Shown: one piece after another, positions 38,567-41,203 of the stretch
How the letters are laid out: the number at the start of each line of letters is the position of its first letter
Position numbering within the stretch: the first letter of the stretch is position 1
Source: Escherichia coli
GTDB lineage: Bacteria; Pseudomonadota; Gammaproteobacteria; Enterobacterales; Enterobacteriaceae
DNA length: 64,000 nt
NCBI RefSeq assembly: GCF_044647545.1
Contig: NZ_CP172818.1
Direction: 5' to 3' (one strand)
Program-made: the position numbers and the translations under genes
Notes under the pieces: generated by a model
What the model was told of the DNA's origin: nothing
The model's input: the letters and a program-made list of their open reading frames with translations, nothing else
Databases searched by the model: none

Positions 38567-38645
38567 TTTAAACTCCTTAAAATGATTGGATCGCATTAAA
38601 AAAGTAGGATTTATCGATAAAGTAAGCAAGTGCAAAGGACTCGTG

Positions 38646-38665
38646 TTTAAATAACAAAATCCTAA
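38646..38665 (-). promoter_or_regulatory. GAD box (GadE/GadX-RcsB binding site) upstream of gadB
   Basis: Plus-strand tttaaataacaaaatcctaa is the reverse complement of TTAGGATTTTGTTATTTAAA, an exact 20/20 match to the GAD box as I recall it, about 80-100 nt upstream of the gadB ATG. Confidence 0.8.
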
Positions 38666-38995
38666 TGTTATTTATCGTGAGATATTGCGTGAATAATATT
38701 TTTTCATTGAAAAACAATATAGTAGGGAGCTATTGGGTGGTGGCAAGGTGTTTTATGCTGTTATTTTTATGTGCATTCTGTGCCTCCTGAATTATCACGT
38801 AAAAATCAGACCTTAAAATATCATTATTAGTACGCGGTTATTTACTTTGAACGCATTTATAAAATTATTACATAAAAATAGCGAATATTGCTAAAATCCC
38901 CGCCAACGATGTGTTGACGGGGCTGTGATTATTTTGGCAATAATACCCCGGCATAAGTATTTACCGGATGAGAAAGATATTGTTTAACGCGTTAA

Positions 38996-39379
38996 GGGGG
39001 GGGGGAGTGAATGTCATTCTCGAGCTCTTTATTCGCTGCCGCTCCGCAAACAGTAACCTTCCACCTTCTCCCATCCACCACCGGCCCCTCGCCTCGTAGC
39101 CGGCCGGCGAGCCCCGGCAGCCAGCATGGTCTCTGCCGGGGTACGGGTGTGGTCAGGCCCCTACTGCCCTCTGCGGGGGGGGGGGGGGGGGGGGGGGGGG
39201 GGGGGGGGGGGGGGGGGGGGGGTGCGGTCGGGTCGGCGTTGTGCTCCCGGGGGGGGGGGGGGGGGGGGGGGGGGGGGGGGGGGGGGGGGGGGGGGGGGGG
39301 GGGGGGGGGGGGGGGGGGGGGGGGGGGGGGGGGGGGGGGGGGGGGGGGGGGGGGGGGGGGGGCCTCAGGCAGGGGGGGG
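38996..39379. repeat. cluster of G homopolymers (10, 48, 114 and 8 nt) separated by short GC-rich spacers
   Basis: Counted directly: G-runs at 38996-39005, 39175-39222, 39249-39362 and 39372-39379; an overlapping XhoI/SacI site (ctcgagctc) lies at 39019-39027. Confidence 0.95.
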
Positions 39380-41203
39380 AAACCGAGTAATAATGGGATA
39401 TAAGGTAATGGTGAAAAAAGGATAAACGAAAAATAAGAAAGTCTATGTATGAATACGCGCTGGAACCCATGCGGTGGCCTGCCTGCAATTTGCTAAATGT
39501 TGGCTTCAGTTAACTTTATCGTTGAGTAGATAATGTAATTGTCTTGGATAGAAAAATGTGATGTAAATGTCTATATTAAAAAGATTTTAGGATGAAAATA
39601 AACTTGATGATTAAAAAAGGCTAAAAGTAAACTAGAATGAAAATTACCAATGTAACATATAAAAATGGTGAATAAACTGATAAGGTGGGAGGAAGAAAAA
39701 TAATGATAGGAATGTGCTATTCATAAATAATATCGGGTCGGTGAGAATTGATAAATTATATGTATCCGATAGATAAAAAATGATAAACTAAGAGGGTAAT
39801 GGAATTAGTATAATGAGGTAAGTAAAATAATTGATATGATCAGAGTGATGGCTGCTATCATGAAAAGTAGTTACTGAATTATGGTCTGTAAGGTATGTAG
39901 CTCTGGGGGCATAAATTAAATAAAAGAAACTATGTTCTGAGAAAAGAAATTATTATTAATAAAATGCATTGTGTAATGATAAAAATAGTTTTTGGCCTGC
40001 ATAGCGTTGTTGATAGTGAATAATTTAGGAAAAAATAGGCCAGCAGAGTGGGTTCCCTGGTCGCGCTGTCTTTGTTTGATGAACTCTTTCAGAGTGCTGT
40101 CATCATCATTTTTCATGAGTAAACTGCGACTCTTTTCAAGGTAAAAACAGTAATCAATTTGAGATTAATTGAAAACTGGAGGGCTGGCTCCTGCATTCTG
40201 CTCCTGCCGGGCTTTTTGATTTGTTAATTTTGATTTATTGTAGGGTGGCTGGCTGCTGTGATAAACTCTTTAAGCTTGCATCTTTTAACGACCTGCGGAT
40301 TGGGGGGCAAGGTTATTTTTGCTTAGATCGTGTTGTAGATAACTGATGTTTTCTACTGTATAGAAAGGAATAATCGTTTTACGTATAGAATTGGCTTAAG
40401 TCTGTGTTGGGGTTATGCGGGTAATTTGACTGATGGGAAAAATTTGGGTAATTTCAGAATGGAATATTTCTGTAAACAGTGAGAATAAGAGGTTATCAGG
40501 TAGATTTTTATGTGGCTGCTTTTTTATCTGCAACAGGGCAGCAAGGAAACGCCATCAGCTTAAGGTCTTTGGAATGCTGATATGGCTGATAAGAGCTGTA
40601 GGTAAAATCATTGGGAAATAGCTGTATAATTACGGGTGAAGTCACAATAAAATTGGGGTGTGAGTGCGGATAGGTCTGACTTTAAGCCTGCCGAGCGGCA
40701 AGGACATCGATAACGCACATTATGGAGGTAAAGAGAATAATTGTATGATACTGTCCGTCAGTTGTCGAGAATGCGTAACCTGATAAGAATAGGAAGCGTA
40801 GTAGTTACTTACTCAGATAATGCTTTGATTGATCAGGTGAGGATTATTTGGCAGGTCGGAGCTTTAAGCAGGTAGCTTGGCTGGTGTGTGGCGATAGTGT
40901 TGGTGTGCGTGGGGTTGAAGTTGGGTGCCTTGGGGTGTGTTGGTGGGGGTGTCTTGGAAGTAAGAGAGAAAAAGTGGGTGAGTGAAGTAGTAAAAGAGAA
41001 GAGAAGAAGGGAAAAAGTAAAGGTTAAGTAATTGAAAAAATGAATAAAATGAGAAAATGGAATTGAGATAAAATAATATGAAAGGTTATGAAATGATAAA
41101 TATGTGATGAATGTATTATTTATTAATAAATATATCGCCTAAAAACAACGCGGGGCAGGGAATGACTGCATTTAATTTTTAGTAGGGTGCGTGGTGACTC
41201 TCG
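39380..41203. other. ORF-free block with strong strand asymmetry (C-depleted, A/G/T-rich on the plus strand); nature unknown
   Basis: No ORF of 70 aa or more on either strand in about 1.8 kb; positions 40981-41100 contain no C at all. Confidence 0.9.

Follow-up and report, generated by a model that had tools for sequence, protein, structure and literature searches.

A corrupted sequence in place of the pqqL–ydeN genes between gadB and ydeO in an Escherichia coli assembly, and its probable technical origin

Results

Gene content between gadB and ydeO

The window analysed here is the whole 64,000-nucleotide stretch of Escherichia coli contig NZ_CP172818.1 (assembly GCF_044647545.1). Within it, gadB is intact on the minus strand (37166–38566); tblastn recovers GadB amino acids 1–466 at 100% identity, encoded at 38566–37169. 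The region upstream of gadB, i.e. the gadB–pqqL spacer (38567–38928), is intact as well and belongs to a stretch 100% identical to positions 1–5894 of L005, the FDAARGOS_497 locus that we used as reference. On the other side, ydeO occupies 41204–41974 on the minus strand. The gap between the two genes (38567–41203) measures 2,637 nt, in agreement with the roughly 2.6 kb given in a preliminary description of this DNA.

That description had given, for K-12, the order gadB-pqqL-yddB-yddA-ydeM-ydeN-ydeO. This was correct for K-12 MG1655, where the order is gadB-pqqL-yddB-yddA-(yneP)-ydeM-ydeN-ydeO and the distance from gadB to ydeO is about 10.5–10.9 kb, and also for the ST648-type relatives of the window. 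Strain ST648 and FDAARGOS_497, the closest relatives, both carry all five genes between gadB and ydeO in the K-12 order. Across complete genomes, ydeM and ydeN are present in 5,352 of 5,426.

None of the five genes (pqqL, yddB, yddA, ydeM, ydeN) is intact in the window. The absence of all five, as first claimed, stands for pqqL past a short stub, for yddB and for yddA, which are unrepresented: YddB gave no tblastn match in the window, and the matches to YddA there are ddp paralogues only. It does not stand for ydeM and ydeN, which are there as corrupted copies. The gap does hold an aberrant block, as had been noticed; it extends over 38990–41221 and consists of G-runs, noise, and a damaged gene copy.

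Limits of the block and the pqqL stub

Where the window is clean, it matches ST648-type chromosomes (such as strain ST648, FDAARGOS_497, MS6198, and ECONIH1) at 100.0% identity. Neither the 5.9 kb of left flank (33096–38989) nor the 6.7 kb of right flank (41222–47945) contains a single difference from FDAARGOS_497. Between them, the 2,232 nt of the anomalous block occupy the place of 10,466 nt in the reference (L005 5895–16360). On the left the boundary is abrupt (38989/38990); on the right it is gradual, ending at 41221/41222 within the last codons of ydeO. Breakpoints had been proposed near 38994 and at 41150–41200, so that the left one shifts by a few bases to a sharp boundary and the right one becomes a gradient ending slightly further on. 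Between the flanks there is no clean junction, insertion sequence (IS), or scar, and 2,232 nt of non-genomic filler are found instead. Thus, of the 'deletion or replacement' originally suggested, replacement fits the string of letters (about 10.5 kb exchanged for 2,232 nt), while an evolutionary break in synteny is unsupported.

Immediately left of the break lies a genuine 3′ stub of pqqL on the minus strand (38929–38989, 61 nt), made up of the stop codon at 38929–38931, nineteen further codons, and one additional nucleotide. Its peptide, VKQYLSHPVNTYAGVLLPK*, is identical to PqqL of the relatives, and a tblastn search of the window places PqqL amino acids 909–927 at 38988–38932. The TBLASTN check for PqqL and YdeN remnants that had been recommended therefore returns this stub, along with a weak match to YdeN amino acids 333–495. 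A minus-strand frame ending at 38961–38963 had been put forward as the surviving stub of the deleted gene, but it is read in another frame and does not belong to pqqL.

The break at 38989/38990 forms the palindrome TTAACG|CGTTAA. A fold-back at this point was considered and rejected, since no reverse complement of the left flank could be detected beyond the break.

G-runs and orphan sequence

The first part of the block (38990–39380, 391 nt) consists of G-runs and orphan sequence. It fills the place of about 7.2 kb, namely pqqL beyond its stub, yddB, yddA, yneP, and the final 48 nt of ydeM. Reading from the left, CGTTAA is followed by ten Gs (38996–39005), a C/G-rich orphan 169-mer (39006–39174), forty-eight Gs (39175–39222), a 26-mer, 114 Gs (39249–39362), and an 18-mer. 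No other G-run of at least 9 nt occurs in the 64-kb window.

Searches with 38990–39174 gave no match among E. coli genomes in the distant mode of blastn and only chance matches (E ≥ 0.2) among plasmids. An exact 34-mer from the orphan was not found in GTDB representatives. In deletion-tolerant alignments, the orphan did no better than shuffled controls against both strands of the K-12 interval, the part of pqqL immediately beyond the break, the flanks in the window, L005, and IS1. The XhoI/SacI-like motif CTCGAGCTC gave no vector match.

A corrupted copy of ydeM, ydeN, and the ydeN–ydeO spacer

The remaining 1,841 nt of the block (39381–41221) are a colinear, same-strand copy of ydeM, ydeN, and the spacer between ydeN and ydeO, so internal sequence of the supposedly deleted genes does remain. 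The corrupted ydeM (39381–40196, minus strand) has about 1,110 of its 1,158 nt squeezed into 816 nt. Its first portion (39381–39665) reaches a deletion-tolerant alignment score of 381, compared with 142 ± 8 for shuffled sequences, and there is a weak tblastn match to YdeM amino acids 5–85. From 39659 to 40874, blastn finds the block colinear with K-12 ydeM–ydeN, with 364 deletions and no insertions. The 3′ half of ydeN (40211–40874, minus strand) is colinear with positions 14862–15691 of locus L001 and is the source of the weak YdeN match.

The 5′ half of ydeN and the start of the ydeN–ydeO spacer (40875–41049, minus strand) are heavily degraded, with about 1,050 nt shrunk to 175 nt and only seven Cs left. 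At the colinear position, local alignment scores for this part still exceed those of 100 shuffles, with z = 3.5 against the ST648-type sequence, 4.7 against K-12, and 5.4 against E2865. Next comes a recovery zone (41050–41221) that covers the ydeN–ydeO spacer together with the two final codons of ydeO, and in which error density falls to zero. Relative to related genomes it contains sixteen mismatches and nineteen deleted bases, all between 41070 and 41221, the last error being at 41221 itself.

The errors therefore reach the 3′ end of ydeO. As it stands in the window, this reading frame encodes 256 amino acids and is authentic from 41222 upward. By tblastn, YdeO aligns at 41974–41216 with 99.2% identity over amino acids 1–253. 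The protein ends in ...SALGLIIC* here and in ...SALAI* (253 amino acids) in relatives. The exact 256-amino-acid product is not on record, and this C-terminus is artefactual. In addition, a 36-mer taken from the block was absent from metagenome contigs.

Error profile of the copied part

Between 39381 and 40874, 2,011 reference nucleotides are reduced to 1,493, a loss of 518 bases (about 26%). The losses fall into 325 runs, 225 of them a single base long; there are no insertions and at most thirty-four substitutions. Loss depends strongly on the base. C is lost in 60% of cases (40% kept) whereas G is lost in 15% (85% kept), an odds ratio of 8.7 (P = 4 × 10⁻⁴³), and T is lost in 27% (73% kept) compared with 14% for A (86% kept; P = 9 × 10⁻⁸). 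The loss of C is independent of context, with 55% of isolated Cs missing, while the loss of T grows with run length: 10% of lone Ts are missing, and 48% of those in runs of at least four. The overall rate varies smoothly along the block, between 5 and 63 per 100 nt; it becomes extreme at 40875–41049 and has reached zero by 41221.

A deletion-only profile that is specific to base and strand is the signature of missed base calls, i.e. it is technical and not mutational, since no mutational process removes about a quarter of all bases in a strand-specific manner, without insertions or substitutions, next to kilobases of unchanged flanks. Given the asymmetry between C and G, a single strand, and most simply a single read, would lie behind the block. 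A consensus over a mixed population, in which bases are voted against gaps, was judged unlikely as the sole cause because C and G would be lost equally if both strands had contributed reads.

Foreign alleles in the block

At sites within the block that discriminate K-12 from ST648-type genomes, the K-12 state is found eighteen times and the ST648 state five times. Extending the comparison to six haplotypes at thirty-four informative sites, the block matches KD602 at twenty-seven, E2865 at twenty-six, K-12 at twenty-two, and the ST648 type at nine. Substitution counts run in the same direction (15 against E2865, 22 against K-12, and 34 against the ST648 type). Thus most of the apparent substitutions in the block represent true polymorphisms carried by another E. 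coli allele, and technical error consists almost entirely of deletions. The ydeM–ydeN alleles that mark this second genotype include T at 39605, A at 39636, G at 39743, and T at 40103.

The last K-12-type (non-ST648) allele lies at 41137 and ST648-type alleles resume from 41229, with the errors ending at 41221. The allele switch (41137–41229) coincides with the end of the errors, and the filler has a different source from the flanks. The K-12 MG1655 reference was rejected as the source of the filler, as the block carries private alleles common to several lineages, among them E2865 and KD602.

Chimerism elsewhere in the window

A second foreign interval contains hipBA (49221–50830). It is 100.000% identical to K-12 and has sharp edges, with surroundings that are 86–98% identical. 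The ST648-type genomes examined lack hipBA, and ST648-type alleles in the window stop no more than 8 nt short of its left edge. The hipBA allele is common to many phylogroup-A-like genomes; the K-12 MG1655 reference is a possible source of this filler.

Segments of 642, 1,538, and 4,617 nt, as measured in the compared ST648-type genomes, are missing from the window at junctions colinear with K-12. The structural differences between the window and ST648-type genomes, and most of the small ones, are located at such structural junctions. The junction at 48372, with the flanks it has in the window at ≥99% identity, was found in none of 5,426 genomes, and the best matches spanning it reach 97.4%. 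The window's truncated usher of 382 amino acids is not on record. Overall, the window reads as the sequence of one genome laid over, or merged with, the structure of another. A naturally recombinant strain was judged unlikely, both because the foreign segments end only a few bases from structural edges and because the 48372 junction with these flanks occurs in no complete genome.

Genuine deletions of the interval in other E. coli

Using the joined flanks as a query, we found both flanks in one place in three of 5,426 complete genomes: 23AR0998 (NZ_CM132249.1), NZ_CM194533.1, and MB20. All three arrangements are IS1-mediated and none of the strains is ST648-like. In 23AR0998, as in the window, gadB lies near ydeO and is accompanied by a short 3′ stub of pqqL. 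There, however, a complete IS1 with clean junctions separates a pqqL stub of 102 nt from a ydeN 5′ stub of 156 nt, and degraded internal sequence is absent. The window, in contrast, has no IS and shows a corrupted ydeM and ydeN, G-runs, and foreign alleles.

Two further strains have related losses. MS20657 carries a larger clean deletion without degraded internal sequence, and is not ST648-like. PSJ-07 (NZ_AP027619.1) has lost yddB through a pqqL′–yddA′ fusion, which shows that the yddA–yddB–pqqL part varies naturally among strains; unlike the replacement in the window, this deletion is clean and internal, ydeM and ydeN are intact, and the strain is not ST648-like. Among independent genomes of the same lineage as the window we found no deletion, with all the ST648-type relatives examined retaining the five genes.

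Discussion

The damaged copy is colinear, its errors are confined to deletions and depend on base and strand, and it carries foreign alleles; the flanks are flawless, and other parts of the window are chimeric as well. From this evidence we conclude that the block at 38990–41221 is, very probably, a sequencing or assembly artefact joining two accurate ST648-type stretches. If so, the window shows neither a loss of five genes nor the breakpoints of one.

The filler most likely derives from one noisy single-molecule read, or from a draft segment that was never polished. Its errors would then be omissions and not wrong calls, affecting C most often and T chiefly within T-runs, and the number of missing bases would have left accurate reads unable to map to the block, so that correction took place only at its right edge. 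The sequencing technology, the origin in one read, and the assembly steps are what we infer from the pattern of letters. Raw single-molecule reads normally carry insertions too. Zero insertions in the block is therefore unusual, and a consensus or polishing step may lie behind the filler.

Uncorrected low-quality long-read bridges and chimeric joins are a general class of artefact in hybrid or reference-assisted assembly. The block resembles this class in its perfect flanks, its sharply bounded poor stretch, its missed bases, and its compressed homopolymers, as well as in the alleles from a second source and the template-like structures elsewhere in the window. Compared with ordinary uncorrected reads it is more extreme, with no insertions, a very strong C-specific loss, and runs of 48 and 114 Gs, and its assignment to the class is read from the letters of the window.

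The long G-runs, which have no biological counterpart, also recall two-colour Illumina chemistry, in which absent signal is called as poly-G. Such reads are short and cycle-locked and cannot delete bases. Poly-G of this kind would at most explain the G-runs, and not the 1.8 kb of base-dropping copy. Against the artefact reading, it accounts neither for the origin of the G-runs nor for that of the 169-nt orphan. A further point against it concerns the two foreign intervals: the hipBA filler is perfect and the ydeM–ydeN filler is ruined, and one simple model of the pipeline does not cover both.

Among the alternatives, the one that we take most seriously accepts that the block is junk and differs from the artefact reading only with respect to the organism. 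It holds that the ST648-type isolate truly lost the roughly 10.5 kb from pqqL through ydeN, down to the last codons of ydeO, e.g. in a deletion mediated by an IS with ends near 38989 and 41222, and that the assembler then bridged the resulting break or repeat with foreign low-quality sequence. The ST648-type source does supply nothing in 38990–41221 though it supplies everything else, and the sole other interval that is not of ST648 type is hipBA, which is genuinely missing from ST648-type genomes. Moreover, even the nearly error-free stretch at 40090–40190 retains a non-ST648 allele (T at 40103) that was never corrected, and genuine deletions of the interval do exist in E. coli, together with the partial one in PSJ-07. 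This argument depends, however, on an unproven model of the assembly. All the close relatives examined retain the five genes, gadB and ydeO are joined in just three of 5,426 complete genomes (none of them ST648-like), and the window itself offers no IS, scar, or clean junction. A true loss in the isolate is therefore possible, though we lean against it.

Far less plausible are two readings that take the sequence at its word. The block might be real DNA, with ydeM and ydeN decaying as pseudogenes beside a deletion, and with genuine poly-G tracts; its sole support is that the string is present in the window with recognizable remnants of both genes. Pseudogene decay would be expected to leave insertions as well as deletions, and substitutions at the surrounding level of divergence. 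What is found is a loss of about 26% of bases with no insertions and almost no substitutions, targeting a single base of one strand, between 5.9 kb and 6.7 kb of unchanged flanks. In addition, the alleles belong to another haplotype than the flanks and the limits of that haplotype coincide with the error zone, and a G-run of 114 nt occurs nowhere else in the window. E. coli is not known to maintain mononucleotide tracts of about 114 nt stably. We consider this reading very improbable. A natural adjacency of gadB and ydeO in the lineage, which would have meant that the stated gene order was wrong or did not apply there, has nothing in its favour and is more improbable still, to the point of being negligible. 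Such adjacency was not found in K-12 or ST648-type genomes, both of which have five genes in between; ydeM and ydeN occur in nearly all complete genomes (5,352/5,426), and in the three genomes where the flanks come together they do so via IS1.

The yddA-yddB-pqqL genes form a Fur-regulated cluster that is reported to contribute to the fitness of uropathogenic E. coli in a model of systemic infection (PMC3855560). If the isolate had truly lost the interval, this cluster included, that would be a lineage-atypical loss in an extraintestinal pathogenic clone. It would be of modest weight, a strain-level finding with precedents in other strains. On the artefact reading that we prefer, the case is mainly a warning about corrupted sequence in assemblies. 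Taken at face value, the window yields a false break in synteny and a false five-gene loss, as well as a false C-terminal variant of YdeO and reading frames for poly-glycine and poly-proline that are spurious. Because the whole window mixes two E. coli genomes, other structural findings in it, such as hipBA, the truncated usher, and the porin/LRR region, call for the same caution.

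Junctions with K-12-like structure

The hipA-hipB segment (49221-50830) is 100.000% identical to K-12 MG1655, and its flanking sequence is ST648-type, with 86-98% identity to K-12. At the left edge of hipBA, ST648-type alleles reach to within 8 nt, and hipBA is absent at the corresponding site in the ST648-type complete genomes that we examined. This pattern suggests that the segment was pasted in or derived from a template, and not acquired by natural recombination.

The usher gene is cut off at 48372, precisely where K-12 has its ydeT junction. At this point the window lacks 4,617 nt that ST648-type genomes carry, comprising the remainder of the usher gene, a chaperone, a fimbrial subunit, and IS2. 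None of 5,426 complete genomes carried the 48372 junction with the window's flanks at 99% identity or more. The following 848 nt (48373-49220) are ST648-type except for two K-12-type alleles, at 48373 and 48400, and include window-specific changes at 48670 (loss of TT), 48861 (loss of 1 nt), and 48866 (T>C).

Window-specific small deletions were also found at 51485 (TAGC) and 18882 (A). These are the exact sites of extra K-12 segments of 786 and 323 nt, respectively, which are missing from ST648-type genomes as well as from the window, and the two deletions look like imperfect junction repair. In the LRR-protein / ompC-like porin region (12296-12621), the window lacks two segments found in FDAARGOS_497 (642 and 1,538 nt). 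Because these are absent, the yddK-yddL arrangement is K-12-like, yet the sequence here is 100% ST648-type.

Edges of the corrupted block

In the window, YdeO is 256 aa and ends in ...SALGLIIC*, as compared to 253 aa and ...SALAI* in its relatives. This altered C-terminus (41204-41221) results from the tail end of the corrupted stretch between gadB and ydeO and should therefore not be counted as a variant. At the left break, the joined sequences form a perfect palindrome of 12 nt, TTAACG|CGTTAA (38984-38995), containing an MluI site. We found no evidence for a fold-back of the left flank in the sequence beyond this break, and the palindrome may be due to chance. Long reading frames span the G-runs (39011-39488), two of them on the plus strand (130 and 99 aa) and one on the minus strand (111 aa); they encode poly-Gly or poly-Pro and are homopolymer by-products.

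Natural variation at the pqqL-ydeN locus

Structural variation of this locus exists naturally in other E. coli strains. IS1-mediated loss of pqqL-ydeN was found in three genomes, including 23AR0998 (locus L007, NZ_CM132249.1, 2439-3466), and an internal deletion in PSJ-07 (locus L002, NZ_AP027619.1, 5429-7890) leaves pqqL'-yddA'. MS20657 (NZ_CP082077.1) has a larger deletion in which gadC/gadB, ydeO, and hipA are also truncated. Among the close relatives, the annotation of strain ST648 gives ydeM a frameshift (locus L003, NZ_CP008697.1, 12620-13778), but the gene is intact in FDAARGOS_497.
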